A stretch of DNA of 64,000 nucleotides, from contig JBAZBD010000001.1 in assembly GCA_041671645.1 (NCBI GenBank), forward strand, positions 21,561-85,560, given 5' to 3'. Below the pieces are notes generated by a model. The model did no database searches. It was not told the origin of the DNA and saw only the letters and a list, made by a program, of their open reading frames with translations. Within the stretch, counting starts at the first letter, position 1; every line of letters begins with the position of its first letter. The DNA is from Patescibacteria group bacterium. GTDB taxonomy: Bacteria > Patescibacteriota > UBA1384 > XYA2-FULL-43-10 > 1-14-0-10-43-13. Positions 22,621-55,910 of the stretch are shown here, piece after piece. A program made the translations under genes and the position numbers.

Positions 22621-23820
22621 TTATTTTAGAGCACTTTTATAGACGTCGAGAGTTTTCTCTGCCGTGTCGGACCAATTGTATTTGGCCGCTTGTTTCAGGC
22701 CTTTGGTTGAGAGCTCTCCCCTGAGCTTCTCGCCGGTGGAGACTCGTGCCATCGCCTTGGCCATATCTTCGATATCGTATGGATCGAAATACAGTGGAGC
22801 ATCGCCTAGAATTTCTGGCATACAGGAAACGTTGGATGAGAGTACTGGCGTGCCGCAAGCCATAGCTTGGAGCGGAGGGAGGCCGAAACCTTCATAGAGC
22901 GAAGGAATGATATAAGCCATCGCGCCAGCGAAACCAATCACCTGCTCCTCGGACTTCTCTGGCAAGAAACCAGTAGTAATAATGGAATTTGGAATTTGGA
23001 ATTTGGAATTTAGGTATTCTCGGACTCTTTTAATTTCTTCCATTACCTCTGGCTCTGCAGGATCGGGTTTGCCCATTAGGACTAGTTGAACAAAATTACT
23101 AGATTCCCGGGTCATGGCTTCGCCTGCCCGAGAATGACAATCAACGACAAACTTCTCATAGGCCTGGATTAGGCGTACGAGATTTTTGTGTTTTTTCCAC
23201 ATTCCGGCATAGAGAAAATAATCGCCGGTGATGCCAAATTTCTCCTTAAAATCTTTGACCTTCGAGGTCTGACCTTTGACCGATTCGTTATATTTCAAAT
23301 CGAAACCGAGATGAGTGACCGCTATCTTCTCTGGTTTGACGCTGAATCTTTTGACAATGTCCTGTTTGGTTGTTTCTGAGACAGAAATTATCTTGGCTGA
23401 GTCTCGAGCCGCTGATTGCATTACCTTCTTGAAGGCGAATTGCTTGATCGGATTAGCTTGGAAGAATTCGGTGAATTGGGTCAAGTCATGGATCGTGACG
23501 ACATAATTGCCCCGATACATGACCGGGTGATTGAACTGGGTAAAGTGCACGAGATCATACTTTTTATGATTCAGAAAAGTTAGGAGTTTGGTCTGCTCCG
23601 CCATGGAATAATGGGGGACGTCCAGAATCTTGGTTTGAAAGTTAGATGATTTTCCGAATGTTGGGTAGGCCTTCAATTTCTCTAGGCCCTGCGGACGGAT
23701 TAATAGTGTATACTCATTTTCCTTATCCAATTCCAAGACTCGGCTCAAAATCTCAAGGGTGTAGATAGTAAGTGAAGAGCCTATACCAATAAATCTGCCG
23801 TCAATTAGAATTTTTTTCAT
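22621..23820 (-). CDS. glycosyltransferase family 4
   Basis: GT-B fold with EGFGLPPLQAMACGTPVL motif (EX7E region). Confidence 0.8.
   Translation of the reverse strand: MKKILIDGRFIGIGSSLTIYTLEILSRVLELDKENEYTLLIRPQGLEKLKAYPTFGKSSNFQTKILDVPHYSMAEQTKLLTFLNHKKYDLVHFTQFNHPVMYRGNYVVTIHDLTQFTEFFQANPIKQFAFKKVMQSAARDSAKIISVSETTKQDIVKRFSVKPEKIAVTHLGFDLKYNESVKGQTSKVKDFKEKFGITGDYFLYAGMWKKHKNLVRLIQAYEKFVVDCHSRAGEAMTRESSNFVQLVLMGKPDPAEPEVMEEIKRVREYLNSKFQIPNSIITTGFLPEKSEEQVIGFAGAMAYIIPSLYEGFGLPPLQAMACGTPVLSSNVSCMPEILGDAPLYFDPYDIEDMAKAMARVSTGEKLRGELSTKGLKQAAKYNWSDTAEKTLDVYKSALK
22984..23011. repeat. 4 x perfect heptanucleotide tandem repeat (GGAATTT) inside the GT4 coding sequence
   Basis: ggaatttggaatttggaatttggaattt. 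Encodes KFQIPNS on the - strand. The unit is not a multiple of three. Confidence 0.6.
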
Positions 23821-27576: not shown

Positions 27577-27689
27577 AGATTTATTATACCTTATTATTTA
27601 TATTTTTTTTGGTGGGGTAATTGCCTCATAAAAAGCAAATGCCCCCAGGCAAGGGCTTAAAAGTTGTATGAAGCTATGATAAAATTAGT

Positions 27690-28871
27690 TTGATGATATT
27701 GTCAAATTGGGACAGAAAATTTGTGTCTGCTATTCTCTGCGTATCCGTGTTTTCTCTGACGCTCGCGGCAATGCAAAAAGTTCATGCTGAAATCAACAGC
27801 ACTGATTTTGTAAATAATAAATCCTACAACAATCTGATCTCCAACAGGGACTTTATCGATATCGGATCGATGACCCAGGACGAAATTCAAGCCTTCCTCA
27901 ATACTAAGGCCTCTTATCTAAAAGAATTTTCTGAGGGTGGCAAGAGCGCTGCACAAATTATTTATGAGGCGGCTCGAGGCAAGAAAAATACTGCCGCCAG
28001 AGATGGCGAGGATTACAGCACTTATCTAGGTGAAACATATAAGAATGTCACGGTCAACGAAAGCACCGGCACCGTGAGCCCCAAAGTACTGCTTGTGATG
28101 CTGCAAAAGGAACAAAGCTTGATCACTCGAACTGAACGCAACGATGACGCCCTAACGATCGCCATGGGCTACGGCTGCCCCGATTCGAGCAGTTGCTCCA
28201 GTCATTATTTCGGCTTTACTTTCCAAGTCGAATGGGCGGCTTGGCAATTGCGTTACAATTATGGACGCTCACAAGGTAAAGGAACCGATTTTCAGGTCGG
28301 CCAGACGATGACCGGGGTAGACGGACAATACGATGTCACATTTATGAACGAAGCCACAGCTTCGCTCTATCGCTATACTCCGCATGTTTTCGATAGCGCC
28401 TATAATTTTATGAACTTGTATGATAGTTGGTTCACTACCCACGCCGATAGTGAAAGTGACGACACGGCCAACTTCACCCTCAAAACTTATACTAACGCCC
28501 AAAAAGTTTCTGGCGGGAAAAGAAGCGACACTATCGCTTATCTGAACAACAGCCCCCTAAGCGACGGTGGGCTCGGATCTAGAAGTTGGAATATTAATTT
28601 TACCGATCTGGCTTACGGGACCAATAATTACACCTTAGAATACAAGGACGCGGGCGGTACTCTGGTCGATACAAAATCGATAGTGATCGAGATTCACAAA
28701 CCTGGCGATATCGACGGCAATAACGCCGTCGACGTCCAGGACCTTTCGATTTTCGCCGCCTACTGGTCGCAGATCAATCCAGAGGAGCCACTGGCCAATT
28801 TGACCGGTGAAGTCGGCCATGCCATTAACGTTCAGGATCTTTCAATCTTGGCGGGGTATTGGGGAAAGTAG
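27690..28871 (+). CDS. secreted protein with C-terminal dockerin-type repeat pair
   Basis: Signal peptide. C-terminal GDIDGNNAVDVQDLSIFAAYW ... INVQDLSILAGYW, a duplicated dockerin type I Ca-binding repeat. N-terminal roughly 300-aa domain is unassigned. Confidence 0.6.
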   Translation: MMILSNWDRKFVSAILCVSVFSLTLAAMQKVHAEINSTDFVNNKSYNNLISNRDFIDIGSMTQDEIQAFLNTKASYLKEFSEGGKSAAQIIYEAARGKKNTAARDGEDYSTYLGETYKNVTVNESTGTVSPKVLLVMLQKEQSLITRTERNDDALTIAMGYGCPDSSSCSSHYFGFTFQVEWAAWQLRYNYGRSQGKGTDFQVGQTMTGVDGQYDVTFMNEATASLYRYTPHVFDSAYNFMNLYDSWFTTHADSESDDTANFTLKTYTNAQKVSGGKRSDTIAYLNNSPLSDGGLGSRSWNINFTDLAYGTNNYTLEYKDAGGTLVDTKSIVIEIHKPGDIDGNNAVDVQDLSIFAAYWSQINPEEPLANLTGEVGHAINVQDLSILAGYWGK

Positions 28872-28978
28872 TTACAATTTTTAATTACTAATTTTTAATT
28901 TCTAATCAAATCTTAATCATTAAAAATTTTAAATTGATTAAAACTTAGGAAATACGAATTAAGAATTAAAAGGATAAT

Positions 28979-30232
28979 ATGAAGAAAAATTTGTTAGTAT
29001 GCGTATCGGCGTTCTTGTCAGTTTTATTTTTGCCCACGCTTGCCATGGCGGCTGGTATTTCTGTCTCGTCTGGCAGTCTGAAATACCCAGGAGATGAAGC
29101 TACTGGCACCGTTACGGCTAGCGGCACTACTTTTAATGCCTTTTCGGGGACGATCGGGTCCGGCGGCGTGATCAAAATAGTGAGCTGTTCTCCTGGAGAT
29201 GCCCTCTGGGTAAACAAGCCAAACGGAGCTGGCAGTTTTGCCGGAGCTTTGACTGAGCCAGTTTCCTCATTTCGGATCGCTTCCTGCAAATTGAGAGCTA
29301 GTACGACAGGCAGTGGAACATTCTCTGTCTCTGGAGTATCTCTGGCCGACAAAGGACCTATCGTCGGGACTGATGGCGACAGCACATCCTTCAGCATCGT
29401 TCGCCGTCCGACGCCCCCAGGTGCTATCTCCATCTCTTCGGCGACTCACGCTGACCAAAATACGTCCTACGAAGCGAACACCGTCATCTTGTCCTGGGAT
29501 CGGCCAAGCAATATTACCGGTTTCTCCTATCTTCTCGATCAGACCGCTGACACTATTCCTGGCGCGAAGGTGACCTCCAATGAGATGACCGTCACTTATG
29601 CGGATCAAGCAATCGGGACATATTATTTCCATATCCGAGGACAGAACAATGATGGCTTTGGCGACACTTCGCATTTCAAAATTATGATCAAGGAGCCAGA
29701 TCCAAAGATTAAGGAAGAAATTGCCAAACCCTCCGATATTTCAATCTCAAAAACAAGCGACTTCAAAAATATTATAGCTGACGGCACCGCATCAGGTATC
29801 AAGATCTCAGGCCTGACACTGCCAGAGTATATGGCTAACATCAAATTGGAACCATCGCCAAAGATACCTGAGGGCAAATTGATGTCGGCCAAGGCTGACG
29901 CCAATGGCAGATTTGAATTCCTGATCGACTTTCCGATACCAGCAGGGTCGTATATTTTGACAGTTCAGGGTCAAAACAACAAAACTTTAACCCCAGTCTC
30001 CGATCCGATTCGCTTCGAGCTCTCTCAAAAAGAGGGTGGATCAATCCAAATTGTTACGGCAAGCGATGAAAATGTCCCCATTATTCCACCCAAGAAATGG
30101 CATGAAAAAGTAAATTGGTTGGCGGTTTCTATCGCAATAGCTTCGCTTTGGTTGATTTCCGCAGCCATAATTGTTACTTTGGCAGTAAGGAAAAAGATAA
30201 ATTTGAAGAAATTCACTAAATTGATTGGTTAG
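28979..30232 (+). CDS. cell-surface protein: signal peptide, beta-rich ectodomains, C-terminal TM anchor
   Basis: AAAGGATAAT-ATG RBS. Signal peptide ending TLAMAAG. Ig/FN3-like repetitive beta-rich sequence. C-terminal hydrophobic helix followed by RKKINLKKF. Confidence 0.6.
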   Translation: MKKNLLVCVSAFLSVLFLPTLAMAAGISVSSGSLKYPGDEATGTVTASGTTFNAFSGTIGSGGVIKIVSCSPGDALWVNKPNGAGSFAGALTEPVSSFRIASCKLRASTTGSGTFSVSGVSLADKGPIVGTDGDSTSFSIVRRPTPPGAISISSATHADQNTSYEANTVILSWDRPSNITGFSYLLDQTADTIPGAKVTSNEMTVTYADQAIGTYYFHIRGQNNDGFGDTSHFKIMIKEPDPKIKEEIAKPSDISISKTSDFKNIIADGTASGIKISGLTLPEYMANIKLEPSPKIPEGKLMSAKADANGRFEFLIDFPIPAGSYILTVQGQNNKTLTPVSDPIRFELSQKEGGSIQIVTASDENVPIIPPKKWHEKVNWLAVSIAIASLWLISAAIIVTLAVRKKINLKKFTKLIG

Positions 30233-31660
30233 ATGAAAGAAAAACGAGCCATTTTTATCAGTACCGCTTCGCAAATAATTGTGCGATTTTTCACCTTGGC
30301 CTTTACTCTTATCGCGGTCAAACTGATCACAAACTATCTGGGAACCAAAGGAACCGGTGATTATAACACTATTAATACCTTCCTGGGCTTCTTCATTGTC
30401 ATTGCTGACCTCGGTCTATTCTCTGTAGCCGTAAGGGAAATCGCCAAAAATCCAGAAAAAGAGAGAAAAATTCTTTCGAATGTCCTGGCGATTAGAATTA
30501 TTACCGCGATCTTGGCTGTTATCTTTGCGGTGATAATAATGTTTTCTACAAAGTTCAGCCCAGAAGTAAAATTTGGCACTTTGGTCGGAAGCGGTTTTAT
30601 TTTCTTCAATCTGCTCTCGAGCGTTTACGATGTCGTTTTGCAGTACAAATTGCAGATGCAGTTCTCTGCGCTAGCTGAGTTTATAACTCGAATTATTACT
30701 CTGATCGCCCTGTATATCGTAATCAAAAGTCATGGGAATTTTTACTTGATCATGGCGACACTTACCTTTTCGGCGATACTAATATATTTCTTCAAAAAGA
30801 TTTTTTCTGATCGTCTGGCTAAATTCAGACCGGAATTCGACCAGAAAATATCAAAATGGATCTTCGATCTCGCTTGGCCTCTGGGAATCGTCTTCGTCAT
30901 GAATAATCTGTTTTTCAAGATCGACACTCTGATGGTAGCCTGGATCAAAGGATCGGTTGCTGTCGGGATTTATTCAACAGCTTACAAAGTGATCGAGGTG
31001 ATAGTTTTCATGGGCGGTTATTTTGCTAGTAGTTTGAAGCCTGTCATCTCCCGAGAGATAGATCGCGACAAAGAAGGCGTAGCCCGCATAATTCAAAAAT
31101 CGGTAAATATTATGCTGATTCTTTCCCTGCCGGTCACTATCATCTCAGTCGCCTTTTCCAGAGAGATAATCCTCTTTATTAGTAGCCCAGATTTTGCAAT
31201 TGGCGCGAAGGCCCTAATTGTCTTGTCCTTCACTCTACCATTTATTTATCTTGACACCTTGCTTGGTGAAGTGCTCCTGGCCAGCAACGCTCGGAAGTTA
31301 CTTGTCAAAATAGCTGTTTTTATCTTGGCTTTCAACTTTTTGACGAATCTTTACTTCATTCCGAAATACTCATACATGGGCGCCGCCTTTACGACCCTAA
31401 TGTCAGAAATAGTCTTGTTTGGCGTAAATTATTACTATACTAAGAAAATATTGCCCTATTCATTCGACAAAAAAATGATCGCAAAGATATTCGCGATTTC
31501 CTTGATCTCTTATTTTTTCGCCGTAGCGGTGAAACAGGCCACTTCTTGGCACTTCCTGATTATTATGGCTCTGACACTAGTTCTCTACATTCTTTTGCTT
31601 AATGCATGGAAGATACTCACTCTCGCAAGCTTGAAAGAACTGCGTAAAAGCGACCAATAG
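30233..31660 (+). CDS. Wzx-type oligosaccharide flippase (MOP superfamily)
   Basis: 475 aa, 12-14 TMS, polysaccharide-biosynthesis-protein N-terminus (ASQIIVRFFTLAFTLIAVKLITNYLG). Confidence 0.75.
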   Translation: MKEKRAIFISTASQIIVRFFTLAFTLIAVKLITNYLGTKGTGDYNTINTFLGFFIVIADLGLFSVAVREIAKNPEKERKILSNVLAIRIITAILAVIFAVIIMFSTKFSPEVKFGTLVGSGFIFFNLLSSVYDVVLQYKLQMQFSALAEFITRIITLIALYIVIKSHGNFYLIMATLTFSAILIYFFKKIFSDRLAKFRPEFDQKISKWIFDLAWPLGIVFVMNNLFFKIDTLMVAWIKGSVAVGIYSTAYKVIEVIVFMGGYFASSLKPVISREIDRDKEGVARIIQKSVNIMLILSLPVTIISVAFSREIILFISSPDFAIGAKALIVLSFTLPFIYLDTLLGEVLLASNARKLLVKIAVFILAFNFLTNLYFIPKYSYMGAAFTTLMSEIVLFGVNYYYTKKILPYSFDKKMIAKIFAISLISYFFAVAVKQATSWHFLIIMALTLVLYILLLNAWKILTLASLKELRKSDQ

Positions 31661-31662
31661 CG

Positions 31663-32535
31663 CTATTTAGCTTTGATTAAATCAAAGTCCTTTTTGGCTT
31701 GAGCAAAGGCCCAAAAAGGAGTTTTGAGCGCTTTTGCTTTTCCCTTGCCATAGAAGAACATGCAGGCTAGTATCGGCCTTAGTTTGCGCCAGAAGAAACA
31801 CAGAAGATAGATATGTGAAAAGTTCTTCAGGAAGAAATAGTACTCGTTGTGGAAAAAGTCAAAGTACCAATCAATCCGTGATTTTTGGCGGCCACCACCA
31901 CTTTTGTGGGCCAGATGGATAATTTCGGCCTCTGGATCAAAAATTATTTTGTAGCCAGCGGCCACGACTCTCAAGACAAAATCGCTCTCTTCTCTCATGG
32001 CGTTGCCAATATAATTCTCGTCATAATAGCCAGCTTTGGCGATTATCTCTCGGTAAATAGAGAAGTTCCCTCCGGCGACCGTGTTCACTTCTTCTCGATC
32101 ACGGCTGGTCCAGTTGACGATAATATTGCCAGTCTTGGTGATATGGTTGGCCTTGCCGGAAGTGAAAACCCCCTTTTCATGAGGTAGGACGACTCGTCCA
32201 GTCACTGCAGAAATGCTCTTGTCCTCATAATTCTTGAGGTGCTTGGCTAGAAATCCTTCGACCGGGATGATGTCGTCATCGAGGAATAATACTAATTCCC
32301 CTGTCGCCTTCCGAGCAGCGAAATTCCTGGCGGCTGGCGCGTTTGGCACATCCAAATGAAAATATTTGATAATCGGAATTTTGGCCACAAAATCGAGGAA
32401 AGGTTTGTCGACATCTTCAGACTGATCGATAATCAAAATTTCCTCAATCAAAGATTTTTCTCGAAGCAAAAGATCGATTGTATCTTTGAGCACACCGTAT
32501 CGATTGAGAGTTGGGATGATAATTGAAAATTTCAT
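31663..32535 (-). CDS. glycosyltransferase family 2
   Basis: FSIIIPTLNR ... DDD GT-A motifs. Confidence 0.75.
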   Translation of the reverse strand: MKFSIIIPTLNRYGVLKDTIDLLLREKSLIEEILIIDQSEDVDKPFLDFVAKIPIIKYFHLDVPNAPAARNFAARKATGELVLFLDDDIIPVEGFLAKHLKNYEDKSISAVTGRVVLPHEKGVFTSGKANHITKTGNIIVNWTSRDREEVNTVAGGNFSIYREIIAKAGYYDENYIGNAMREESDFVLRVVAAGYKIIFDPEAEIIHLAHKSGGGRQKSRIDWYFDFFHNEYYFFLKNFSHIYLLCFFWRKLRPILACMFFYGKGKAKALKTPFWAFAQAKKDFDLIKAK

Positions 32536-32543
32536 ATTTAGTC

Positions 32544-33545
32544 TTAATTAATTCCTGAAACTTCGTCGAGCATCCAACTTGATTGTCGCCTTGAGGCCCA
32601 GCCAGAATAGCGACGTTTGCATTTGATAATGAGTGAAGCCAACGATGGGGACAGAGCCAGGATTGATCTCATCAATTCTCGGCTTCTGCTTGAGATGTAT
32701 TTTTCTGATTCCTGATAGTTTGACTTGGCCTTCTCGTAATCCTTCGCTTCTAGGTAATAATTGCCGAGTCGAATCAGGTAAGTCCCGATTTGGCTCTGGA
32801 CGAAAGTTTTATCAACAGGATCGAGCTCCCATGTACCATCTATTTTTTTGTAGCAATAGACCAGATCGATCAGCATTTTGTCTACTCTGTGAGAGAGGCT
32901 GGTACGATGGAATCTCCAACGAAAGAGCGGCTCCGAGATAAAGGTAAGTTGTCCCTCTCGAGCTAGACGAAGCCAAAGCTCATAATCATCAGCGAGCTTC
33001 ATCTTTTCGTCGAAACCGCCGAGTTTCTTCAAAACTGACGCTCTAACCACCGCGCCAGTCGTCGTCAAGATAAAATTCTGCTTGATTAAAGCCTTCAAAA
33101 TACTCTTTTGGCTTGGCACAGACTCAATCTCGGGCCATCGGGCGGCAAGATCAATCTTTTTGACATCATCGAAAATGAAACCATTGGCGAAATTGGCAAC
33201 TGCGTCAGAGTTTTTCTCGAGAGAATCGACTTGTTTGGCCAGCTTGGTCGAAAGCCAAAGATCGTCATGGTCAGAGAAGGCAATATACTTGCCACGAGAA
33301 TTTTTGATTCCGGTATTTTTGGTCCCAGCCGGCGCACCAGCGTTCTTATCGTGTTCTATGAGACGCAGTTTGTCGCCATAACTCTTGATTATCTCAACTG
33401 AATTGTCGGTCGAGCAATCGTCAACTAGAATCAATTCAAAATCTTTGAACGTTTGGCCAAGGACTGAGTCTATTGTTTGTCGCAGATTTTTGGCGCCGTT
33501 GTAAACCGGAATGATGATCGAAACCAGCGGACTTTTATCGCCCAT
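32544..33545 (-). CDS. glycosyltransferase family 2 with C-terminal TPR-like tail
   Basis: VSIIIPVYNGAKNL...LILVDDCSTDNS, DHDD motif. Confidence 0.8.
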   Translation of the reverse strand: MGDKSPLVSIIIPVYNGAKNLRQTIDSVLGQTFKDFELILVDDCSTDNSVEIIKSYGDKLRLIEHDKNAGAPAGTKNTGIKNSRGKYIAFSDHDDLWLSTKLAKQVDSLEKNSDAVANFANGFIFDDVKKIDLAARWPEIESVPSQKSILKALIKQNFILTTTGAVVRASVLKKLGGFDEKMKLADDYELWLRLAREGQLTFISEPLFRWRFHRTSLSHRVDKMLIDLVYCYKKIDGTWELDPVDKTFVQSQIGTYLIRLGNYYLEAKDYEKAKSNYQESEKYISSRSRELMRSILALSPSLASLIIKCKRRYSGWASRRQSSWMLDEVSGIN

Positions 33546-33586
33546 AGTATTCCTGAAAATTTAATAGTTTGATATATTAAAATTAC

Positions 33587-34684
33587 ATGATAATCGGCGT
33601 TGATACAAGAGAATTGGGCGAGAGGAAGACTGGCAAGGGCTGGTATGTTTACCATGTCCTGAAAAGGATGCTGGAAAGAGATCACGAAAATACCTATCTT
33701 TTGTATTCTAACAAAGAAATCGATTTTCCTCACTTCAAAAATGCCAAACTGGTCAAAGTCGAGAGCGGAGGGATTGGTTGGCATTTCAAGGTAAACAGTC
33801 GATTGGGAAAGGATGGGGTCGATCTATATTGGGCTCCGACTAGCCCAATCGTACCAGCAATCGCCAAGATCCCGACCGTTCATACCATCCATGATCTTTC
33901 AAACTTGATCTTCCCCCAAACACACACCTGGAAAGGAATCTTGGTCGACAAAATTTTCACTTATTGGGCAGTCAAGAGGACGAAAAAAGTCATAACTATT
34001 TCAGAGGCGACCCAAAAAGATATCTTGAGTTTCTATCCTTTCGCAAAGGGAAAAATTGAGATTACGCCGCTCGGCTTCGACCAAGCTTTCAAACCCATGA
34101 CTGATAGCGAAATCGCACCAATTCTGGCGGAAGACAAACTCAAACCTGGCTATATTCTCTTCGTCGGGACACTCGAGCCCAGGAAAAATATTGAGACGAT
34201 ACTAGGCGCATTTGCCAAGTTAGACCCCAAAACGCAAGAAGCTCATCCGCTCATAATTTGCGGCAAGAAGGGTTGGCTTTATGAGAATATATTTGCCAAA
34301 GTCGATCAGCTGAATCTCAAAGACAAGGTCAAATTCCTGGAGCACAAGGGGCTCAGAGAGCTACCAGCGCTTTATAATGGGGCTTCGGTCTTCGTCTTCC
34401 CGTCTCTATATGAAGGGTTTGGTTTGCCACCGCTCGAAGCAATGGCCTGCGGCAAGGCAGTCATCGTAAGCAATGTTAGCTCTCTGCCAGAGGTAGTCGG
34501 AGACGCTGGCATTTTGATAGAGCCAAAAGACGCCGATAATCTGGCACAAAATATTACAAAAATACTAAGCGACAACAACTATCGCCAAGATCTAGAGCAA
34601 AGAGGATTGAGAAGAGCGAAAGAGTTCTCCTGGGAAAAAACTGCCGATCAGACCAGAGACATACTGTCGAATATATTGAAATAA
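33587..34684 (+). CDS. glycosyltransferase family 4
   Basis: EGFGLPPLEAMACGKAVIVSNVSSLPEV motif. Confidence 0.8.
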   Translation: MIIGVDTRELGERKTGKGWYVYHVLKRMLERDHENTYLLYSNKEIDFPHFKNAKLVKVESGGIGWHFKVNSRLGKDGVDLYWAPTSPIVPAIAKIPTVHTIHDLSNLIFPQTHTWKGILVDKIFTYWAVKRTKKVITISEATQKDILSFYPFAKGKIEITPLGFDQAFKPMTDSEIAPILAEDKLKPGYILFVGTLEPRKNIETILGAFAKLDPKTQEAHPLIICGKKGWLYENIFAKVDQLNLKDKVKFLEHKGLRELPALYNGASVFVFPSLYEGFGLPPLEAMACGKAVIVSNVSSLPEVVGDAGILIEPKDADNLAQNITKILSDNNYRQDLEQRGLRRAKEFSWEKTADQTRDILSNILK

Positions 34685-34685
34685 A

Positions 34686-35147
34686 CTATTTGTTCTGCCA
34701 GTCGTTGTGGAAATAAAATGATGGAATCTTCTCACGAGATTCCTCTTTTTTTGGCTTGTTTTTTTCGAGCGATATCCAAATTAGAAAATTGAATAATCCG
34801 ACGGGCAGAACGATCAGAATCGCAAAATAGAGATAGTTCACAATTAACTTCGTCGAGAGATAGATATCATCACTAGTCAGCCAAAGATAGGGCGCAGGAA
34901 TCTTCTTGAAGAAGAGTAGGAGTGCCATCGTCGTAATGATCAGTAAATTAACGATGTAACGTAATTTGACCTGGGAAAGAAACAGCAGGACGCCAGACAA
35001 TAGCGCTGCAAAACGAAAACGTCCGCCCCATTCTGGATGGTAGAAGGCTAACGTGAACATGATGATTATCAAAAGAGCAAATACCGATCTGATCGGAGAC
35101 TCGCTACTTTCGTTTTTTTCTTGTGGGGGCTGCTGGGGGTGGGTCAT
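34686..35147 (-). CDS. small integral membrane protein
   Basis: 153 aa, four hydrophobic helices. True start may be an internal Met; it overlaps the upstream gene. Confidence 0.4.
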   Translation of the reverse strand: MTHPQQPPQEKNESSESPIRSVFALLIIIMFTLAFYHPEWGGRFRFAALLSGVLLFLSQVKLRYIVNLLIITTMALLLFFKKIPAPYLWLTSDDIYLSTKLIVNYLYFAILIVLPVGLFNFLIWISLEKNKPKKEESREKIPSFYFHNDWQNK

Positions 35148-36597
35148 TTTTCTTCAGAATTAATACTTTATCATTATAAACTATAGAGTAATTCTTGAAA
35201 TCTGTGGGCGACGAGGTAGCCTCGGGCGGAAAGTAGATATAGTCATATTTGACTTCGTTGCCTTTCGCTAGATAGTCATCTAGGGCTGGCTTTTCAAAGA
35301 GCATATTATCATACACTAGATTGTAGCGATCACCTACCGCCTTGATCCATATGCCATAGCGCCAATAAGCCGCAATCGTTTTATCTTCGGGAATGTTGTC
35401 CCTTACCCAGGTGATGGCCTTTTGGTCCGATCCAGTCATAATTGCCTGGGCTCCCGGGTCATTCTTCTGCCAATTCAATAATACTGTGTTGGCGCTGTAG
35501 CTAGGAGCGATCGCAAGAAATGCGAGTATCGCGATTAATGTACAACGAGCAACCGCTGGCAAAATCACCGTTTTGGCTAGCGAATAGATCCCGACCGCCG
35601 CGAATACGGCCAGACCCATTTCGAAATACGGGTAGAAGCGAAATGAGAGGAAATATATCCCGAAAACATAGTTTAGCGACATGAAAAGCCCTGCGATTAC
35701 AAGGGCAAATCCAACCTTCACTTCATGCTTGACCCAGTTTTTCAACGAAGCGATAAGTCCAATTATAGCCAAGAATGGGACAAGGATGCGTTGTGGTTGG
35801 TCAGAAGTAAGGATCAGCCAAAACGGGCGCTGACCGTATCCCTTCGGATCGCCCGAGACGAAAAGTAAAAACTTTTCAATCAAGTCATTTTTGAAGAAAT
35901 AAGTAAGCAGTCCGGCCAAGGCATATATTGCCAATAAAATCAAAAGAAATTTCCTGCTCTCTTTGTTCTCTGACTCGACGAATGTAAGAACACAAATAGT
36001 TATGAAAAATAATACATATATGATAAACGAAAGCGGATGGGAAAAAATTAAAATTATTGAAAAAATAATTGTAAAGACGATATTCTTTTTTACAAAGAAA
36101 TAGAGCAGGAGTGCAAACGCAAACCAGCCCCACGTCTCTCCGAGAAGGCCCATCCTGATACCGTCGTTGGTCCAGCGACTTGTCACGAAGATCAGGGCTG
36201 ACAAGAAACCGACGATCCAACTCTTCGAGATTGATTTGGCGAGGAGCGCAACCCCGAGGCCGGCAAGAAAAAAGTAGAAGGAAATAGTTACAGTGAAGAG
36301 CCGAGGCAATTCTACCCCGTGGAACACAATGGAAAGCCATTTGAAAATTATCAGCGGGATCGGGTAGAACATCCCACATATATCGCTGAAGCTCATGGTC
36401 TTGATTCGAGTAATATGAGTCGCTGGATCATCGCCTATCGGAAAAGCAGTGACACGCGCGTATTGGAATGCAAAGTAATAGAGCAGATAAACAAAAAATG
36501 CCCCGACCAAACTTCTCCAAAGAAGGGGGTATTTTTTGAAAAAATTAGAGACTTTTACAATAGCCATTTCCTGATAATCATACCAGAAAATGGCCAT
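35104..36597 (-). CDS. polytopic membrane protein, possibly a GT-C-fold (ArnT/PMT-like) glycosyltransferase
   Basis: 497 aa, at least 11 TM helices, short periplasmic C-terminal domain. No soluble-enzyme motifs. The GT-C call rests on topology only. Confidence 0.4.
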   Translation of the reverse strand: MAIFWYDYQEMAIVKVSNFFKKYPLLWRSLVGAFFVYLLYYFAFQYARVTAFPIGDDPATHITRIKTMSFSDICGMFYPIPLIIFKWLSIVFHGVELPRLFTVTISFYFFLAGLGVALLAKSISKSWIVGFLSALIFVTSRWTNDGIRMGLLGETWGWFAFALLLYFFVKKNIVFTIIFSIILIFSHPLSFIIYVLFFITICVLTFVESENKESRKFLLILLAIYALAGLLTYFFKNDLIEKFLLFVSGDPKGYGQRPFWLILTSDQPQRILVPFLAIIGLIASLKNWVKHEVKVGFALVIAGLFMSLNYVFGIYFLSFRFYPYFEMGLAVFAAVGIYSLAKTVILPAVARCTLIAILAFLAIAPSYSANTVLLNWQKNDPGAQAIMTGSDQKAITWVRDNIPEDKTIAAYWRYGIWIKAVGDRYNLVYDNMLFEKPALDDYLAKGNEVKYDYIYFPPEATSSPTDFKNYSIVYNDKVLILKKNDPPPAAPTRKKRK

Positions 36598-36628: not shown

Positions 36629-38806
<2,178 letters not shown>

Positions 38807-38807
<1 letters not shown>

Positions 38808-39970
38808 TATTTGATCTTCTTAGCTTTTTCCCATGGCAGATCTAGATCTGGACGGCCAAAATGGCCGTAGGCGGCGCATTGTCGATAGAGTGGTCGACGA
38901 AGTTTCAACTCTTTGATGATCATACCTGGACGAAGATCAAAGTTCTTGGCGATTTTTTCAGCGATTGCTTCATCAGAGATCTTACCCGTGCCCGAAGTGT
39001 TGACGTAAACAGACAATGGCTCTGGCTTGCCGATAGCGTAGGCGAGCTGGATTTCGCATTTGGAAGCAAGCCCAGAAGCTACAACGCTCTTGGCGACCCA
39101 ACGAGCGGCATAAGCGCCAGATCGGTCAACCTTCGACGGATCTTTGCCCGAGAAAGCGCCTCCGCCATGACGAGCATATCCACCATAAGTATCAACAATA
39201 ATTTTTCGGCCAGTCAGACCTGTGTCGCCCTCAGGGCCACCGATCACAAATTTACCTGTCGTATTAACATAAATCTTGGTCGCTTTGTCAATTTCAAAAC
39301 CATATTCCCTGAGCACTGGAGCGATCACTTTCTCGGTGATTTCTTTTCTCAAAGTCTTCTGGTCTTTGTCTTCTGCGTGTTGAGCGGCGATTAAGACCGT
39401 GTGAATTCGGGCTGGTTTGTCATTTTCATATTCAACAGTGACCTGAGATTTGCCATCAGGATAGAGACCTTTGACAATATTCTTCTTGCGAACTTCAGCT
39501 AGACGCTGGCAAAGTCTGTGCGCTAGCGTGATCGGAAGTGGCATCAGCTCTGGTGTTTCGTCGCATGCAAAGCCAAACATTAAGCCCTGATCCCCTGCAC
39601 CAAGATGCTCCAAGTCTTCCTTCACAATTTTGCCGCCAGCGGTTTGTTCGAAGCTATCAACACCCTGGGCGATGTCCGAAGACTGTTCTTTGATCGCGGT
39701 CATGACACCGGAGGATGAGTGGTGGAAGCCACAACCGTCATAGCCGATCTCTTTGATTACGTTTCGCGCAATCTTGGCCATATCAACGTATGCGTTGGTC
39801 GTAACTTCACCTGCTACCACGGCAACACCATTGGTCAACAACGTCTCTACCGCGACTCTGGATTTTTCGTCCTTCTCAAGCAACGCGTCTAGAACTGCGT
39901 CGGAAATCTGATCCGCCATTTTGTCAGGATGACCCTCCGTCACTGACTCGGAGGTAAATAAATAACTCAT
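38807..39970 (-). CDS. metK: S-adenosylmethionine synthetase
   Basis: [17 protein letters not shown] and GGGAFSGKD signature. Start at MSYLFTSE, 8 nt after GGAG. Confidence 0.95.
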
Positions 39971-40061
39971 ACTAAGCTCCAATCCGCCAAAGGGCGGAGA
40001 ATTAAGAATATTGAATATAGAATCAAGGTTCGAACCCATAATTCCAAATTCGAGATTCCAA

Positions 40062-40192
40062 ATTCAAAAAAGGCTTGCCACCGGCAAGACTTTACATTTT
40101 TATCTTGCCCGAAGGCTTGGATTTAGCACTTTACCTTGCGGCAAGCTGCTGGATGGTCGACGGGCCAATTCCCTACCATCACTCTTGATAAT
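40062..40192 (-). promoter_or_regulatory. SAM-I (S-box) riboswitch with intrinsic-terminator expression platform, leader of metK operon
   Basis: - strand reads UUAUCAAGAGUGAUGGUAGGGAAUUGGCCCGUCGACCAUCCAGCAGC...GUGCUAAAUCCAAGC...GAUAAAAAU, matching the S-box P1/P2 and GGCCC / GCA-C / GUGCUAAUUCC core. It is followed by cuugcc-GGUG-ggcaag + UUUUUU, then roughly 90 nt to the metK RBS. Confidence 0.55.
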
Positions 40193-40306
40193 TATTTGAT
40201 TGTAAATCCACAATACCAATGCTTTGGTCGGCTGTCAAATTCGTACATTGTAGATCGTGATTATATTTGTTATGTTAGTGATATATTTATTCAGGAAGAG
40301 AATGAA

Positions 40307-47449: not shown

Positions 47450-48757
47450 CTAATTAGTTAACTGGCCTCTATTCTCCCAGACTTTTTTGAATGCGTTCGC
47501 CACATCATCCAGATCATCCCTCGTCATCGGCGGTCGCATTAATTCATGAGTTACCAGTAATTCGTAATGCATTTTTTCAGTGACCGGACAGATGCCTTTT
47601 TGATAAGAAACGTCATCATTATAAAAAGCACACTTCCATGGGCAGCCTTTGTCGCCATACGCTATTTTTTGCTGAAAAATCGGCTGGAGGTAGAGTGGCT
47701 TCACATAGCCTGTCCCTATTTTCACCCCCTCAGTTTCCCTCAGTTCTATGGGAGCCAGCTCTGCCTTGACGGCTTCAATAAATTTTTCTCTAGTGACTCC
47801 GGCTTTTGCCTCATCAAATTTAATCGCGTGCAGGTAAAAAACATGTTCGCTCTCCGGCCTGACCTTCGCAACCTCAAGACAGGGGATCTGATTTAGTTTA
47901 TCATTGAGATAATTAACGTTGTCAATTCGATCTTTTATCAGCCCAGCTAACTTTCTAAGTTGTACTTGAGCAATCGCTGCCTCAATCTCAGTCATCCGGA
48001 GATTGAAGCCGACCATATTTACTAAATCGCCGACACCTTTATTCTCAACAACGGCTTCAGCGTGGTTCCTTATTAGCCTGATCTTTTCGGCAAGGTCGTC
48101 ATCATCGGTCACGACGATACCGCCCTCACCAGTATGAATATGTTTATGGTAGTTCAGCGAGTAAACACCGATATCTCCGAGAGTACCGGCCCATCTCCCT
48201 TTATATTTAGCTCCTGGAGCCTGGGCACAATCCTCGATAACCAGCAGATGATGTTTCTTTGCGATTGCATTGATCTTATCAGCGTCATACGGTTGGCCGA
48301 ATATGTCGACTACAATAATTGCCTTTGTTTGTTTAGTAATTTTTGCCTCAATCGATTCGGGAGACAGACAAAAGTAGTCCTCCTCAATATCGGCAAAGAC
48401 TGGAATAGAATTAAAAATCAGAGGAGCAGTTGCAGAAGCTGACATCGTATAAGGCGAAACGATAACTTCGTCCCCTGGTCCGGCGCCAACGGCGCCAACG
48501 GCACAATAGAGTCCGGAGGTAGCAGAGTTAACTGAAATTGCATGTTTTACGTTAAAATATTTTGCCCATTTTTCCTCTAGCGCACGTACTTCTGGCCCGC
48601 CATAAAAATCCTCATGCCATGCTCCTAGAAATTTGGATAACACGCCGGACTCAATAACTTTTTTAGTTATCTCAGTCTCTTCTTGCCCCAGAACTCTATA
48701 TGCAGGAAAACTTTTGGCTCTGGTCTTCTCGCCACCGTTAATCGCTAATTTTGGCAT
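47450..48757 (-). CDS. DegT/DnrJ/EryC1/StrS-family PLP sugar aminotransferase (second copy, C-terminal extension)
   Basis: Motif ...DCAQAPGAKYKGRWAGTLGDIGVYSLNYHKHI with PLP-lysine. About 60-aa C-terminal extension. Confidence 0.8.
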   Translation of the reverse strand: MPKLAINGGEKTRAKSFPAYRVLGQEETEITKKVIESGVLSKFLGAWHEDFYGGPEVRALEEKWAKYFNVKHAISVNSATSGLYCAVGAVGAGPGDEVIVSPYTMSASATAPLIFNSIPVFADIEEDYFCLSPESIEAKITKQTKAIIVVDIFGQPYDADKINAIAKKHHLLVIEDCAQAPGAKYKGRWAGTLGDIGVYSLNYHKHIHTGEGGIVVTDDDDLAEKIRLIRNHAEAVVENKGVGDLVNMVGFNLRMTEIEAAIAQVQLRKLAGLIKDRIDNVNYLNDKLNQIPCLEVAKVRPESEHVFYLHAIKFDEAKAGVTREKFIEAVKAELAPIELRETEGVKIGTGYVKPLYLQPIFQQKIAYGDKGCPWKCAFYNDDVSYQKGICPVTEKMHYELLVTHELMRPPMTRDDLDDVANAFKKVWENRGQLTN

Positions 48758-49878
48758 AAACTCTGCTCCATATAATCAATTACTCTTTTCACCGGATCTT
48801 TTATTAATTTGAATTCAGCCATCTTCTCTCTTCCGCCGTTTATAGCCGATTTGATCCGGAAATTCAGGGTTCCTTGGTCTAAAATACTTCTCATTAGCCC
48901 AATCCGGTCCAGAACGAAGGGATTGTCCCCTTTGAGCCCGATCTGGATGCTGATCGTCGGTTTACCTAAAATATAAGATTCCAACAGGAACATCGAAGAC
49001 ATCCCACACACAAGATCTGATATTTTTATTAAATCTTGGGAGCAAGAATCCCGATCCAAATATACTTTTATATTATCGCTCTTCAGCTTATTGATCAACC
49101 CATCATAATAGCTTTCGTCCTCTTTGGGGTGAAGTTTTATTATCAGAGAAATTTTAAAGTTTTTCTTAACGTCCTCTATATCAGACAACGCTTCGTGCAA
49201 GCTACAAAATGTCGTGATTTCGTCATAACCAAAGTGTTCCCTAGCATCGCCATATATTTTTCTGATCGGCTCTGAAGCGTAGGTCACAACATAATTGGAG
49301 TGAGAAAGACGATATTTCTTTCTGATCTTTTCCAAAGCATGAGTATCAAATTCTCTATTCTTTAAATACTCGAAGTACGGCTGTCCAGAGACTAAAATCC
49401 GATCTACGGGCAATCCGGCCAAAATCGCCTCACTTTTAGCCAGCTCATCCATCACCAATATCTTTGATGGCAGATACTCATGCTGAGGGTTCTTCTTATA
49501 TTTATCGACATTAGAAACGCCCCATTTTGAAAAACGGATTCCGTAATTTACCCACTGATCCAGAATCGCAAATGAGGGAATGTCCATAATCATGGCCGAT
49601 GACCAAAGATATTTTTCCGTCATATCATCGGCGCTCGTACCGGTAATGATAAAATCTGGTTTTTGGATGAGAAGAAACCCCTTGATCTCTTTTGGACTTA
49701 TTTCTTTGATCTCTTCGGCGATCGGCAAAGCGTGGATTCCGTTTTGGTTAAAACGAGTCATCGCGACATCCTTGCCGAATACTACAACCTTATATCCCCT
49801 CTGTTTCAATGGTTCAAAAAGAGGAATAACCGTGTTAGCTCCGCCGGGATCTCTGGCAAACAGAAGAATTTTCTTCAC
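48745..49878 (-). CDS. GT-B-fold protein, candidate PseG-like UDP-sugar hydrolase / surface carbohydrate biosynthesis protein
   Basis: 377 aa, Rossmann-like halves. C-terminal DLIKISDLVCGMSSMFLLESYILGKPTISI resembles the MurG/PseG GT28 C-domain. The assignment relies largely on position in the operon. Confidence 0.35.
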   Translation of the reverse strand: MKKILLFARDPGGANTVIPLFEPLKQRGYKVVVFGKDVAMTRFNQNGIHALPIAEEIKEISPKEIKGFLLIQKPDFIITGTSADDMTEKYLWSSAMIMDIPSFAILDQWVNYGIRFSKWGVSNVDKYKKNPQHEYLPSKILVMDELAKSEAILAGLPVDRILVSGQPYFEYLKNREFDTHALEKIRKKYRLSHSNYVVTYASEPIRKIYGDAREHFGYDEITTFCSLHEALSDIEDVKKNFKISLIIKLHPKEDESYYDGLINKLKSDNIKVYLDRDSCSQDLIKISDLVCGMSSMFLLESYILGKPTISIQIGLKGDNPFVLDRIGLMRSILDQGTLNFRIKSAINGGREKMAEFKLIKDPVKRVIDYMEQSLCQN

Positions 49879-49880
49879 CC

Positions 49881-50834
49881 TTACGATCCCTTCATATTAA
49901 TAGCCGTTTCTAGATCAGCAATGGCCTCTTTGGCTGAGCACAGAAGCGTTTCTTTTTTTGTTAAATGTGAGAATATGTTATCGGCGGCAAAGTATATAGA
50001 CCTATTTAGCGAAGTCTTGAGGTTGTTCTCCTTCACTAGGTATTTATAACCTTCGAACTCATCGCTCTTCTCTACCCGCCAAATCTCAACATCATTTCCT
50101 GAATTGCGTATCTGAATTCTACCGCTAGCAAAAAGGAGTTCCAGTTCGAAGATTGTATAGTTTTTCGAGCCTATCGCCAAGAATGCAACATTGCCTGAGT
50201 TTATCTTCAGAATACCACTCACCGATGGATCGTCAGTAGAAAAATCATTCTCTCTCGCAAAAGGTTCAAACGCACCGGCTTCCCCCAAAAACATCCGAAG
50301 AAGATCGACCATATGCGAGCCATTATGCATAACGCCCTTACCATAGTAAGCCGTACCACAGATAAAGTTACCATATTCGCCTGCCTTAACAGCCTCGGCC
50401 AAATTTATTAGTTCCGGGACAAACCGCCTAGAATAGTTGACCTGCAAGGCGATACTGCGCTCCTCACAGATTTTTACAATCTCCACGGCCTCTAGTAACG
50501 TTTTGGTAATTGGCTTCTCAGCAAAGATAGCCTTGATCGACTTGGTCATCAATGATTTTAGAATCTCCGCATGGAAATCGTCTGGCACGCAAACGCTGAC
50601 AACATCAATGGATTCTGATGAAAATGCTTCGTCAATATCCTTAAAACTACGACATCCCCACGCCTTGGCTGCTTTCGTGCCCCTCTCAGTGTCATTATCG
50701 ACAAAACCAACCAGCTTAAAACCAGGATGTTCGGTATAAGCGTGAGCGTGTGTGATGATGTTTTTGCTGTTGGGAGTATCAAAATACGCTCCAATTTTCC
50801 CAGCTCCAACAATTAAAGCTTTAAGTTTGTCCAT
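49881..50834 (-). CDS. Gfo/Idh/MocA-family NAD(P) oxidoreductase
   Basis: N-terminal Rossmann fold ALIVGAGKIG, typical length. Confidence 0.75.
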   Translation of the reverse strand: MDKLKALIVGAGKIGAYFDTPNSKNIITHAHAYTEHPGFKLVGFVDNDTERGTKAAKAWGCRSFKDIDEAFSSESIDVVSVCVPDDFHAEILKSLMTKSIKAIFAEKPITKTLLEAVEIVKICEERSIALQVNYSRRFVPELINLAEAVKAGEYGNFICGTAYYGKGVMHNGSHMVDLLRMFLGEAGAFEPFARENDFSTDDPSVSGILKINSGNVAFLAIGSKNYTIFELELLFASGRIQIRNSGNDVEIWRVEKSDEFEGYKYLVKENNLKTSLNRSIYFAADNIFSHLTKKETLLCSAKEAIADLETAINMKGS

Positions 50835-51528
50835 TATTTTCCAAAATTTTGTACTTCATCTCGGCGATCTTCCAGTCCTCCAGGGTGTCGATATCCTGAA
50901 CCTCTGATTCAGGTATCTCTACGGGGACAGCATCATCAAGAAATGATTTCTTCTGAGCCAAAAATTTTTCTGTATTATACCAGTAAAACTGGCCACTATC
51001 GTGGTAGGACGATTCCAGATCCTGCGAGTGTTTATGCATATTCTCTGGCCAAATCATTTTTAAGCGGTCCTTTTCAATTTGGAAAGCTCGCTGGATCGGA
51101 AAGCTATATTTTACGACTGCCACAACCTGATCAGCGTGATTTTCCCTTAATTTCTGAAAGCCTAATTTCAATCTTTCAGCATTTATAAACGGTGCGGTCG
51201 ACAAAATCACGCAGAAATTGTCAAAAGATTTGCCCTCCTTCTCATATCTCTTGATCACTTCCTCAAAAACATCAATGAGGTTGGCCTTGCTGTCAGAGTT
51301 CTCCCGACTTCGTAAAAAAGGAACCTTGGCGCCTGATCTTCGTGAAATCTCTGCAATCTCTTCGTCATCTGTCGAGACCATTACCTCGTCAAAACAGCCA
51401 CACTTTACGGCAGCATCGATAGAATATTTAAGAATTGGCTGACCAAGAAAATTTTTGACATTTTTTCTCGGAACTCTCTTGCTACCACCACGGGCGGGGA
51501 TAATGGCTAATGTTTTGCTCTCCATCAT
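50821..51528 (-). CDS. pseF: acylneuraminate/pseudaminate cytidylyltransferase
   Basis: LAIIPARGGSKRVPRKN cytidylyltransferase motif. Start trimmed to an internal Met. Confidence 0.8.
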   Translation of the reverse strand: MMESKTLAIIPARGGSKRVPRKNVKNFLGQPILKYSIDAAVKCGCFDEVMVSTDDEEIAEISRRSGAKVPFLRSRENSDSKANLIDVFEEVIKRYEKEGKSFDNFCVILSTAPFINAERLKLGFQKLRENHADQVVAVVKYSFPIQRAFQIEKDRLKMIWPENMHKHSQDLESSYHDSGQFYWYNTEKFLAQKKSFLDDAVPVEIPESEVQDIDTLEDWKIAEMKYKILENNGQT

Positions 51529-51551
51529 ATAAACCTCGGTCATGATTAATT

Positions 51552-52595: not shown

Positions 52596-53134
52596 CGGGA
52601 TCTCTTTCTTAAATCACATTTACAGCGTAAGAATTTCTCTCCGCTTATAACACTTTCTTTCTCGAAAACGAAACCGGCATATTCAGAGTTTCTGACAGCT
52701 GCTAGATTGTTTGGTTTTATGTCACCAGTAGCAAAGCTTATTTCGGGCCGATATTTTTTTAAGTAGTCCATGCCTCTGATAAGAAGAATTTTGCCAAGAC
52801 CATATCCCCTAAACCTTTTGTGAAGACTAACACCGGTCAAGGCCTCGTCCCCTTTGAGATCAAATCTTACTTGACCAGCAAAAAGGCCCTTAGTTTCAGC
52901 GATCAGAAAAATATAATTCTTATCGCAAATTTTTCTGGCGAACCACGCCTTATGGTTCTTAAAATCTAATTTTTCTTGATTTACGGAATTTTTTCTTACC
53001 AAGGGATCATTAAAAAGATAGAAGATCTTTTTGCAATCTTTCTCGGTAGCCAACCGAAGTGTTACGTTGTCTCTAATTTCGTTTTTATCCATTGCCACCT
53101 TAAATAATATAAGAATACGGCGCAAACTCCGCAT
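52592..53134 (-). CDS. GNAT N-acyltransferase (PseH-like)
   Basis: 180-aa GNAT fold (RFRGYGLGKILL). Position matches pseH. Confidence 0.6.
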   Translation of the reverse strand: MRSLRRILILFKVAMDKNEIRDNVTLRLATEKDCKKIFYLFNDPLVRKNSVNQEKLDFKNHKAWFARKICDKNYIFLIAETKGLFAGQVRFDLKGDEALTGVSLHKRFRGYGLGKILLIRGMDYLKKYRPEISFATGDIKPNNLAAVRNSEYAGFVFEKESVISGEKFLRCKCDLRKRSR

Positions 53135-53936: not shown

Positions 53937-53977
53937 ATGATCGACTCCGCAATCTTTCCATACAAGAGGCATCGACG

Positions 53978-55889: not shown

Positions 55890-55910
55890 AACATATTCCT
55901 CGGCTCCTAG

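Follow-up and report, generated by a model that had tools for sequence, protein, structure and literature searches.

A probable SAM-I riboswitch with a terminator platform ahead of a metK / PfkB-family kinase / ahcY operon in a Candidatus Saccharibacteria genome

Organisation of the locus

The DNA analysed here is a stretch of 64,000 nucleotides (nt) of contig JBAZBD010000001.1 (assembly GCA_041671645.1), called the window throughout, and the subject is a candidate S-adenosylmethionine (SAM) riboswitch of class I (SAM-I, also known as the S-box) in front of a three-gene operon. An original prediction, made from the letters alone, had placed such a riboswitch and its terminator at 40062-40192. 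The sequence fragments quoted there are all present on the minus strand, and the interval covers the aptamer and the terminator described below to within 2-4 nt.

The operon lies on the same strand and consists of the three genes that had been proposed. The first, metK (38807..39970), encodes a SAM synthetase of 387 amino acids (aa), with 545 bits for TIGR01034 (cut-off 309) and three S-AdoMet_synt Pfam domains. The second (37908..38807) encodes a PfkB-family kinase of 299 aa, a probable nucleoside (adenosine/inosine) kinase, with 85 bits for PF00294 (cut-off 25.8). The third, ahcY (36629..37939), encodes an S-adenosylhomocysteine (SAH) hydrolase of 436 aa, with 675 bits for TIGR00936 (cut-off 498). 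The kinase start overlaps the metK stop by 1 nt and the ahcY start overlaps the kinase gene by 32 nt; therefore metK, the kinase gene and ahcY are regarded as one transcription and translation unit, which would put SAM synthesis under one control with SAH hydrolysis and with the nucleoside phosphorylation presumed to follow it.

The start of metK was set at ATG 39970 (MSYLFTSE...) and not at the in-frame ATG 40039 chosen by the open reading frame (ORF) finder, because the alignment to the metK model begins at residue 4 of the former, a GGAG precedes it, and the 23 extra codons are the structured leader described below. A gene for a membrane protein of 497 aa (36597..35104) downstream of ahcY was considered as a further member of the operon and rejected, having no Pfam hit and not standing beside ahcY in any relative; it probably belongs to the surrounding glycan cluster. 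The terminator scan gave no convincing terminator at the end of the operon. No domain of MetE/MetH, homocysteine S-methyltransferase, LuxS or Pfs was found in the 56 ORFs, which comprise all the long ones in the window that do not overlap, and so the earlier remark that metE and metH are missing is correct for the window, a statement that does not extend to the genome.

In a search with the kinase, a contig labelled "uncultured Candidatus Saccharibacteria bacterium" was matched at 94% identity, with MetK and AhcY there at 96% and 97%. Seven further kinase loci followed at 60-67%, six of them labelled Patescibacteria, Saccharibacteria or "bacterium" and one (L007) Bacillota. On these matches, we assign the window to a genome of the Saccharibacteria (TM7), which belong to the Candidate Phyla Radiation (CPR).

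The aptamer

The whole window was scanned against Rfam 15 with cmscan at the gathering thresholds. A match to RF00162 (SAM, the SAM-I or S-box family) was obtained at 40194..40097 on the minus strand, scoring 49.9 bits where the gathering threshold is 44.4, with an E-value of 1.9e-8 for the whole window. It is the sole Rfam match in the 64 kb, and its alignment runs over model positions 1-108 of 108 without truncation. The identity of the aptamer is therefore a direct observation, and the predicted class stands. The original prediction had named as its refutation a score under the gathering threshold with no covarying helices; it passes on both counts, helices covarying among the relatives as described below. 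The aptamer is on the metK strand, 127 nt upstream of metK and downstream of a promoter-like site; read from 40194 downwards, its sequence is UAAUUAUCAAGAGUGAUGGUAGGGAAUUGGCCCGUCGACCAUCCAGCAGCUUGCCGCAAGGUAAAGUGCUAAAUCCAAGCCUUCGGGCAAGAUAAAAA, followed by UGUAAAGUCUUGCCGGUGGCAAGCCUUUUUU.

All four helices of the SAM-I fold can be placed on the minus strand. P1 has 5 base pairs (bp) and joins UUAUC (40191-40187) to GAUAA (40104-40100). P2a is formed by GAUGGU (40180-40175) with ACCAUC (40157-40152), and P2b by GGG (40173-40171) with CCC (40164-40162). P3 (40150-40140 with 40135-40125) consists of AGCA/UGCU plus UUGCC/GGUAA, and P4 (40116-40114 with 40109-40107) is the short hairpin GCC-UUCG-GGC. 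The SAM-I pseudoknot pairs UUGG of the P2 loop (40168-40165) with CCAA of the junction J3/4 (40120-40117).

The conserved SAM-I core is represented by UAUCAAGAG, AGGGA, GGCCC, GCA, GUGCUAA, UCC and AGAUAA. The positions that contact the ligand (AAGAG in J1/2, the U-A pairs of P1 and the P3 internal loop GCA...GUGC) equal the consensus when aligned by cmscan and do not vary across the seven aligned sequences described below. There are two deviations at highly conserved positions. The bulged A that follows GCA in P3 (40146) is a G in the window and in one relative, L004, and the putative P2 kink-turn (40172-40175; in SAM-I, tandem sheared G.A pairs) has GUA on its 5' strand where the consensus is gGA, the 3' strand retaining GA (GUCGAC). 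The UA on the 5' strand is common to all five CPR sequences with a short P2. By its fold, conserved core, pseudoknot, expression platform and gene context, the element is, as read from the sequence, a member of the SAM-I class, and the aptamer would be expected to bind SAM.

Promoter, terminator and antiterminator

A sigma-70-like promoter is predicted at 40210..40238 (minus strand), with a -35 hexamer TTGACA (40238..40233), a 17-nt spacer and an extended -10 element TG-TATTGT that ends at 40210. It is the top site of the promoter scan in 35-41 kb, with 10 of 12 matches plus the TG, and is a match to the consensus only. A hexamer TTGAC[A/T/G] is found at the equivalent place upstream of the aptamer in six relatives (L002, L003, L004, L008, L049 and L129). 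Transcription would start a few nucleotides past the -10 hexamer, some 10-15 nt before P1. The promoter scan listed no second, SAM-independent promoter between the terminator and metK, and the candidates picked there by eye (TTGATT...TAATTC) were rejected on failing the -10 rule.

An intrinsic terminator lies at 40066..40093 on the minus strand, AAAG-U-CUUGCC-GGU-GGCAAG-C-CUUU, with its end within a U6 tract (40071-40066). The GC hairpin with six U residues that had been read by eye was found independently by a terminator scan, as CTTGCCGGTGGCAAG and then CCTTTTTTGA at 40088..40074. The stem has 6 bp and a free energy of -9.4 kcal/mol as an isolated element. On the other hand, an antiterminator helix can form at 40077..40116 (minus strand), which would be the SAM-free state: GGCAAGAU (40109-40102) pairs with GUCUUGCC (40090-40083), and GCC (40116-40114) pairs with GGC (40079-40077). 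As GGCAAGAU comprises the 3' arm of P4 and the first bases of the P1 3' strand, and the terminator 5' arm lies within GUCUUGCC, while the GCC of the P4 5' arm takes the GGC of the terminator 3' arm, the helix uses both arms of the terminator. As an isolated element it has -16.1 kcal/mol compared with -9.4 for the terminator.

RNA folding gives both states, and so shows the alternative helices that the original prediction had wanted confirmed in this way. The unconstrained minimum free energy (MFE) structure is the antiterminator fold, at -39.2 kcal/mol; when P1 is enforced, the four-way junction with the terminator is obtained at -37.6 kcal/mol. The two folds are mutually exclusive and nearly isoenergetic, being 1.6 kcal/mol apart, so that the stability gained by ligand binding could tip the balance.

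The following mechanism is proposed. At low SAM, GGCAAGAU would be free to pair with GUCUUGCC, the antiterminator would form, and RNA polymerase would read through into the operon. At high SAM, the ligand would lock the four-way junction of P1-P4 and the pseudoknot, and P1 and P4 would hold GGCAAGAU; the CUUGCC-GGU-GGCAAG hairpin with its U6 tract would then form, and transcription would stop at about 40066. Sequence, energetics and covariation give good support to this mechanism, in which SAM stabilises P1 and P4, the antiterminator is thereby prevented and the terminator forms; the design is that of standard S-box transcription attenuation. Termination in vivo would follow from this arrangement.

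Conservation and covariation

The metK-pfkB-ahcY operon is conserved in L001-L004, L006-L008, L049-L051, L129 and L131. Three of these, L049-L051, were the only informative loci from a metagenome scan with MetK, which otherwise gave mostly distant non-CPR relatives at 58-64% identity. L001, L005 and L007 were left out of the upstream comparison because of contig ends. A SAM-clan aptamer precedes the same operon in eight CPR loci, seven of SAM-I type (four of them under the gathering score) and one of SAM-I/IV type. For RF00162, L002 (56.1 bits), L003 (49.1 bits) and L008 (46.4 bits) are above the gathering score and L049 (44.0 bits) is just under it; L050 (33.3 bits, with a large P2 insertion), L004 (27.6 bits, with insertions in P2 and P3) and L129 of Candidatus Berkelbacteria (30.7 bits) are under it as well. 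L131 matches RF01725 (SAM-I/IV) with 45.5 bits, over the gathering score of 41.1 of that family. In every SAM-I-type aptamer locus examined, a hairpin with a T run precedes metK, and in L002, L003, L004 and L050 the ribosome-binding site (RBS) follows the terminator by 4-36 nt.

Two of these loci have unusual arrangements. In L129 (Candidatus Berkelbacteria RBG_13_40_8, MEZT01000016.1, 1829-3978), an ORF of 272 aa with a faint LAGLIDADG match (1976-2794) stands between the aptamer with its terminator and metK, and the tblastn match to metK starts only at residue 12 (position 2836). Possible explanations are the insertion of a homing endonuclease or an intein-like arrangement right at the MetK N-terminus. 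In L131 (ENA ERZ27253376 k141_2079645, a contig of 1.04 Mb), the SAM-I/IV aptamer (2388-2507) is followed by a divergent metK (41% identity), then pfkB and ahcY.

Covariation was evaluated on a MAFFT alignment of seven CPR leaders, those of the window and six SAM-I-type loci. All four helices P1-P4 form in each of the seven sequences. RNAalifold alone recovers P2b, P3, P4 and the terminator, with compensatory changes in 10 of 23 pairs. We also projected the SAM-bound structure of the window onto the alignment, with pairing partners slid by 1-3 columns and 500 shuffles as controls. Standard pairs fill 87.3% of the pair cells compared with 36-47% in the slid controls, a figure that is somewhat favoured by the derivation of the structure from one of the aligned sequences; less affected is the count of pairs changed on both sides, 14 of 37 against 1-6 in the slid controls. 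Five measures were compared with the shuffles; for four of them none of the 500 reached the observed value, and for the fifth 4 of 500 did. Conservation with covariation is thus a direct observation. The covarying pairs are located in P2a, P2b, P3, P4 and the terminator, where for example UA changes to AU and to GC at alignment columns 230/243. The pseudoknot is fully paired in all seven sequences, with one compensatory change in L008, where UUGG/CCAA becomes UCGG/CCGA (U-A to C-G). P1 is conserved across the seven leaders, the mismatches in L049 and L050 being a shift of 1-2 columns by MAFFT; as it never varies, it is uninformative for covariation.

The leader between terminator and metK

The leader downstream of the terminator is itself structured. 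Most of it is filled by a long imperfect hairpin of 68 nt (39999..40065, minus strand), which contains the direct repeat GAATTTGGAAT twice, and this is followed by a small GC hairpin, UCCGCC-CUUU-GGCGGA (39983..39998, minus strand), directly 5' of the RBS. The Shine-Dalgarno sequence GGAG (39977..39980, minus strand) is 6 nt before metK ATG 39970 and unpaired in the local fold. It had been proposed that the RBS sits in this second small hairpin; the stem at 39998..39983 ends 2 nt before GGAG, so that the RBS lies beside the stem and not in it. The small hairpin is not conserved among the relatives. The 101-nt stretch 40066..39966, with both leader hairpins, has an MFE of -30.4 kcal/mol (z = -3.5), and 1 of 200 shuffles folds as well.

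This leader suggests another reading, in which a true aptamer binds SAM but acts mainly after transcription, on translation or on mRNA processing and stability, through the structure at 40065..39983, and the hairpin with its U tract is a weak pause or attenuation site. The strong folding of the roughly 95 nt between terminator and RBS favours it, as do the modest terminator stem and the long hairpins at the same place in L008 and L049. Those hairpins are, however, unrelated in sequence and absent in L002, L003, L004 and L050, the hairpin-free loci in which the RBS follows the terminator closely. Moreover, GGAG is complementary to no strand of the aptamer, and the terminator is conserved with covariation. 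We regard this alternative as improbable, though the least improbable of those considered, and prefer control by transcription termination.

Short repeats in the leader were tried as binding sites and rejected. The near-palindrome ATATTSAATATT (40007-40018, again at 37959-37970) was not significant as an operator: 4 matches were counted where 1.46 are expected, a result equalled by 10 of 100 shuffles. The form ATATT[C/G]AATATT has exactly two sites in the 64 kb, both within the metK operon, and the one at 37959-37970 falls on the kinase codons NIQY, with 20 nt from there to the ahcY start; among the relatives, only L049 has ATATTSAATATT in its leader. The direct repeat GAATTTGGAAT, an 11-mer, was likewise rejected as a protein-binding site, as 29 of 100 shuffles do as well. 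It forms one arm of the long leader hairpin, and its other copies are found only in a heptamer run inside a glycosyltransferase gene. This run, GAATTTG x3.5 (21+ nt, in frame) at 22985-23009 (plus strand) within the GT4 glycosyltransferase ORF 22621..23820 (minus strand), could be a slippage-prone tract.

The metK-leader hairpins of the window, L008 and L049 are long, rich in G.U pairs and built from simple A/C-rich and G/U-rich repeats, for example CAAGAUACAAG.../CUUGUAUCUUG... and GUUGUAA x3 / UUACAAC x4. Similar inverted repeats in the relatives flank small ORFs inserted between operon genes. Long hairpins or inverted repeats lie at 39999-40065 (minus strand) in the window, 2271-2399 and 3570-4010 in L008, 3358-3473, 4640-5110 and 5995-6610 in L049, 3480-4010 in L003 and 3490-3790 in L006. 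Judged by eye, the inserted ORFs encode a protein like that of 23S rRNA intervening sequences and a GIY-YIG-like protein; the Pfam family PF05635 was found only for a neighbouring gene in L129. Taken together, the hairpins and small ORFs resemble a family of insertions bounded by hairpins in the intergenic DNA of CPR.

The PfkB-family kinase

The kinase matches only the general Pfam family PF00294, and it carries the PfkB C-terminal motif DPTGxGD in the alignment to PDB 3kd6. No NCBIfam equivalog was reached; all 11 matches are far under their cut-offs, the best being the Thermoplasmatales nucleoside kinase NF041164 with 58.8 bits against 450. The closest solved structure is 3kd6 itself, a Chlorobium tepidum PfkB kinase that aligns end to end (E 2e-86, 44.6% identity) and was reportedly deposited as a nucleoside kinase bound to AMP. 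A weaker match (E 9e-9) is the Methanocaldococcus jannaschii nucleoside kinase MJ0406 (PDB 2c49). With these two proteins, the window kinase shares the PfkB motif and alignable sequence, but it is without a curated equivalog match. The public names of its relatives are generic ("PfkB family carbohydrate kinase", "ribokinase"), and the closest characterised relatives are nucleoside kinases.

In CPR, the kinase gene is adjacent to ahcY. The pfkB-ahcY pair has an overlap of 29-32 nt in L001, L002, L004, L129, L130 and L132, in the last two without metK. SAH hydrolysis is reversible, and removal of adenosine pulls the reaction forward. The most economical assignment is therefore an adenosine kinase, or an inosine kinase if the route is through S-inosylhomocysteine; from its operon context with ahcY, the former is plausible.

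Outside the CPR, the nearest kinase relatives are in metagenome-assembled genomes of DPANN archaea (Woesearchaeota/Nanoarchaeota-type; L009-L035 and L048) at 48-57% identity, with 52-57% for the nearest. They are closer than the relatives in Bacteroidota and in the Planctomycetota-Verrucomicrobiota-Chlamydiota group or the Chlorobium 3kd6 (43-46%), and in most of these loci an ahcY homologue follows within about 0.5-3 kb. Of the 28 DPANN kinase loci, 16 were scanned with Rfam, with no match at the gathering threshold, and an S-box core regular expression had no match in any of the archaeal loci. On sequence grounds, gene sharing of the kinase between CPR and DPANN is possible.

Genomic surroundings

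The operon sits in a large surface-glycan island (21287-34684 and 40304-63848). The island has three consecutive Wzy_C (O-antigen-ligase-like) paralogues (23801-27576), several GT2/GT4 genes and two flippases, as well as a NeuB/CMP-transferase/DegT set for nonulosonic acid (47450-58062) and, at 59489-63354, the genes rmlA, rmlC, rmlB and rmlD with a NUDIX gene among them. Next to the riboswitch lie divergent GT2-DUF2304-GT2 genes, whose synteny is kept in L002; for GT2 and DUF2304 it is kept in L004 too. The housekeeping genes of the window include recA, recX, ftsK and those for RNase J, H+-pyrophosphatase and pyruvate phosphate dikinase. At 1789-3195 (plus strand) there are two tandem paralogues with an HD domain (YfbR-like 5'-deoxynucleotidase), the second fused to DUF1653; such nucleotide-salvage enzymes are consistent with a purine/pyrimidine-scavenging lifestyle.

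Discussion

We conclude, with a probability of about 85%, that the element is a SAM-I riboswitch that works as a transcriptional OFF switch for the metK / PfkB nucleoside kinase / ahcY operon in a Candidatus Saccharibacteria genome. Several points weigh against this. The RF00162 score exceeds the gathering threshold by only 5.5 bits, P1 is short (5 bp) and without covariation in the aligned set, the 5' strand of the kink-turn has UA for GA, and the conserved bulged A of P3 is replaced by G. In folding at thermodynamic equilibrium, L002, L003 and L050 are without a convincing antiterminator; the use of intrinsic terminators by Saccharibacteria is an assumption; and about 95 nt of structured leader separate the terminator from the RBS. 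Repression of ahcY at high SAM is also the opposite of the SAH-ON logic seen elsewhere (L117 and L126, see below).

Some of these points could be accounted for by a decaying SAM-I relic that no longer binds its ligand or regulates. The score near the threshold, the deviations at the kink-turn and the P3 bulge, and the scores of several other relatives under the gathering threshold would agree with decay, and the aptamer has been lost altogether in L006 and L051, which have the same operon with no aptamer upstream of metK. On the other hand, no core position varies among the loci, although their PfkB kinases have just about 60-67% identity to that of the window, compensatory changes have preserved the helices, and none of the seven sequences has lost the pseudoknot. 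The low scores of L004, L050, L002 and L003 are due to insertions in P2 or P3 and not to core decay. A relic thus seems even less probable than post-transcriptional control, and a working SAM-I riboswitch is preferred. In the two loci without an aptamer, L051 retains, at 3400-3500, no more than a stand-alone hairpin with a T run (TCTTGTTGCAAGG...TTTTT), and L006 has a short string resembling J3/4-P4 at 2250-2343 (GTAAAATCCAAGC); either may be what is left of a former riboswitch. That AT-rich intergenic DNA resembles the S-box consensus by chance, for which nothing speaks beyond the modest bit score, is effectively refuted by the E-value for the whole window, the correct orientation and position upstream of metK, and the recurrence with covariation in eight further loci.

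A wider picture is offered tentatively, and we would put its chances at somewhat less than even. Across the Patescibacteria, a SAM-clan riboswitch, SAM-I in Saccharibacteria-like lineages and Berkelbacteria and SAM-I/IV in another lineage, might govern metK, a nucleoside kinase gene and ahcY as an "open" methyl cycle, with a SAM-OFF switch on SAH hydrolase, and might be one of very few metabolite sensors of these organisms. In such a cycle, imported methionine would be converted to SAM, SAH would be cleaved, adenosine would be re-phosphorylated, saving purine, and homocysteine would not be remethylated locally. The kinase clade common to CPR and the ahcY-linked DPANN loci would be a hint of exchange between ultra-small symbiont groups. 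The SAM-I class may also be under-counted in CPR, because insertions in P2 and P3 put many CPR aptamers below the Rfam threshold.

The Patescibacteria (CPR) have tiny genomes with few recognisable regulators, and a natural riboswitch, once validated, would help to explain how SAM is sensed within these episymbionts. The genetic tools now in development for Saccharibacteria could in addition use it as a native control element that responds to a ligand; a 2024 review explicitly proposes riboswitches for such tools (PMC11665869). Finally, the conserved coupling of metK, nucleoside kinase and ahcY provides a compact hypothesis on the methyl-group and purine economy of organisms that are unable to make methionine or purines.

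Comparison with known systems

SAM-I occurs in many bacterial phyla, and therefore the phylogenetic interest of the window element is modest. The original prediction had called an S-box here of phylogenetic interest if its lineage inference was right, such elements being best known from Firmicutes; the lineage is Saccharibacteria/Patescibacteria, and the class is not restricted to the Firmicutes. McCown et al. 2017, a survey of riboswitch distribution over RefSeq 56 with 36 bacterial divisions, treat SAM-I, SAM-IV and SAM-I/IV as one widespread class (PMC5473149). In the literature library that was searched, we met no account of SAM riboswitches in Saccharibacteria or CPR/TM7.

SAM-I/IV (RF01725) shares the clan CL00012 with the window element and has a binding core like that of SAM-I, and one relative, L131, carries it before the same operon. 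Clan competition, however, places the window element in SAM-I; its P4 is of the SAM-I type, and its pseudoknot joins the P2 loop to J3/4. The SAH riboswitch (RF01057) resembles it in controlling ahcY and the activated-methyl cycle by a metabolite-sensing RNA, but fold and ligand differ. The SAH riboswitch is an ON switch, whereas the ahcY of the window has no separate leader, its start overlapping the kinase gene, and SAM would switch it OFF along with metK. RF01057 was found between adjacent metK and ahcY genes of two unrelated contigs from metagenomes (L117, 4651-4711, 49.6 bits; L126, 1765-1846, 58.7 bits), so that ahcY is controlled separately there, unlike in the CPR operon.

The nearest known system is the SAM-I/S-box riboswitch itself (RF00162), as in the Bacillus subtilis metK and yitJ leaders and Thermoanaerobacter tengcongensis metF. 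The P1-P4 junction, the pseudoknot between the P2 loop and J3/4, the core, the terminator/antiterminator platform and the metK context are the same. The differences are the Saccharibacteria/CPR host, the kink-turn UA for GA and the P3 bulge G for A, the presence of ahcY and the PfkB kinase gene in the operon, and the P2/P3 insertions that drop relatives under the gathering score. As RNA biology, the element is a textbook S-box; less usual are its CPR host lineage, the placement of ahcY under SAM-OFF control with metK, and the many CPR aptamers with insertions in P2 or P3.

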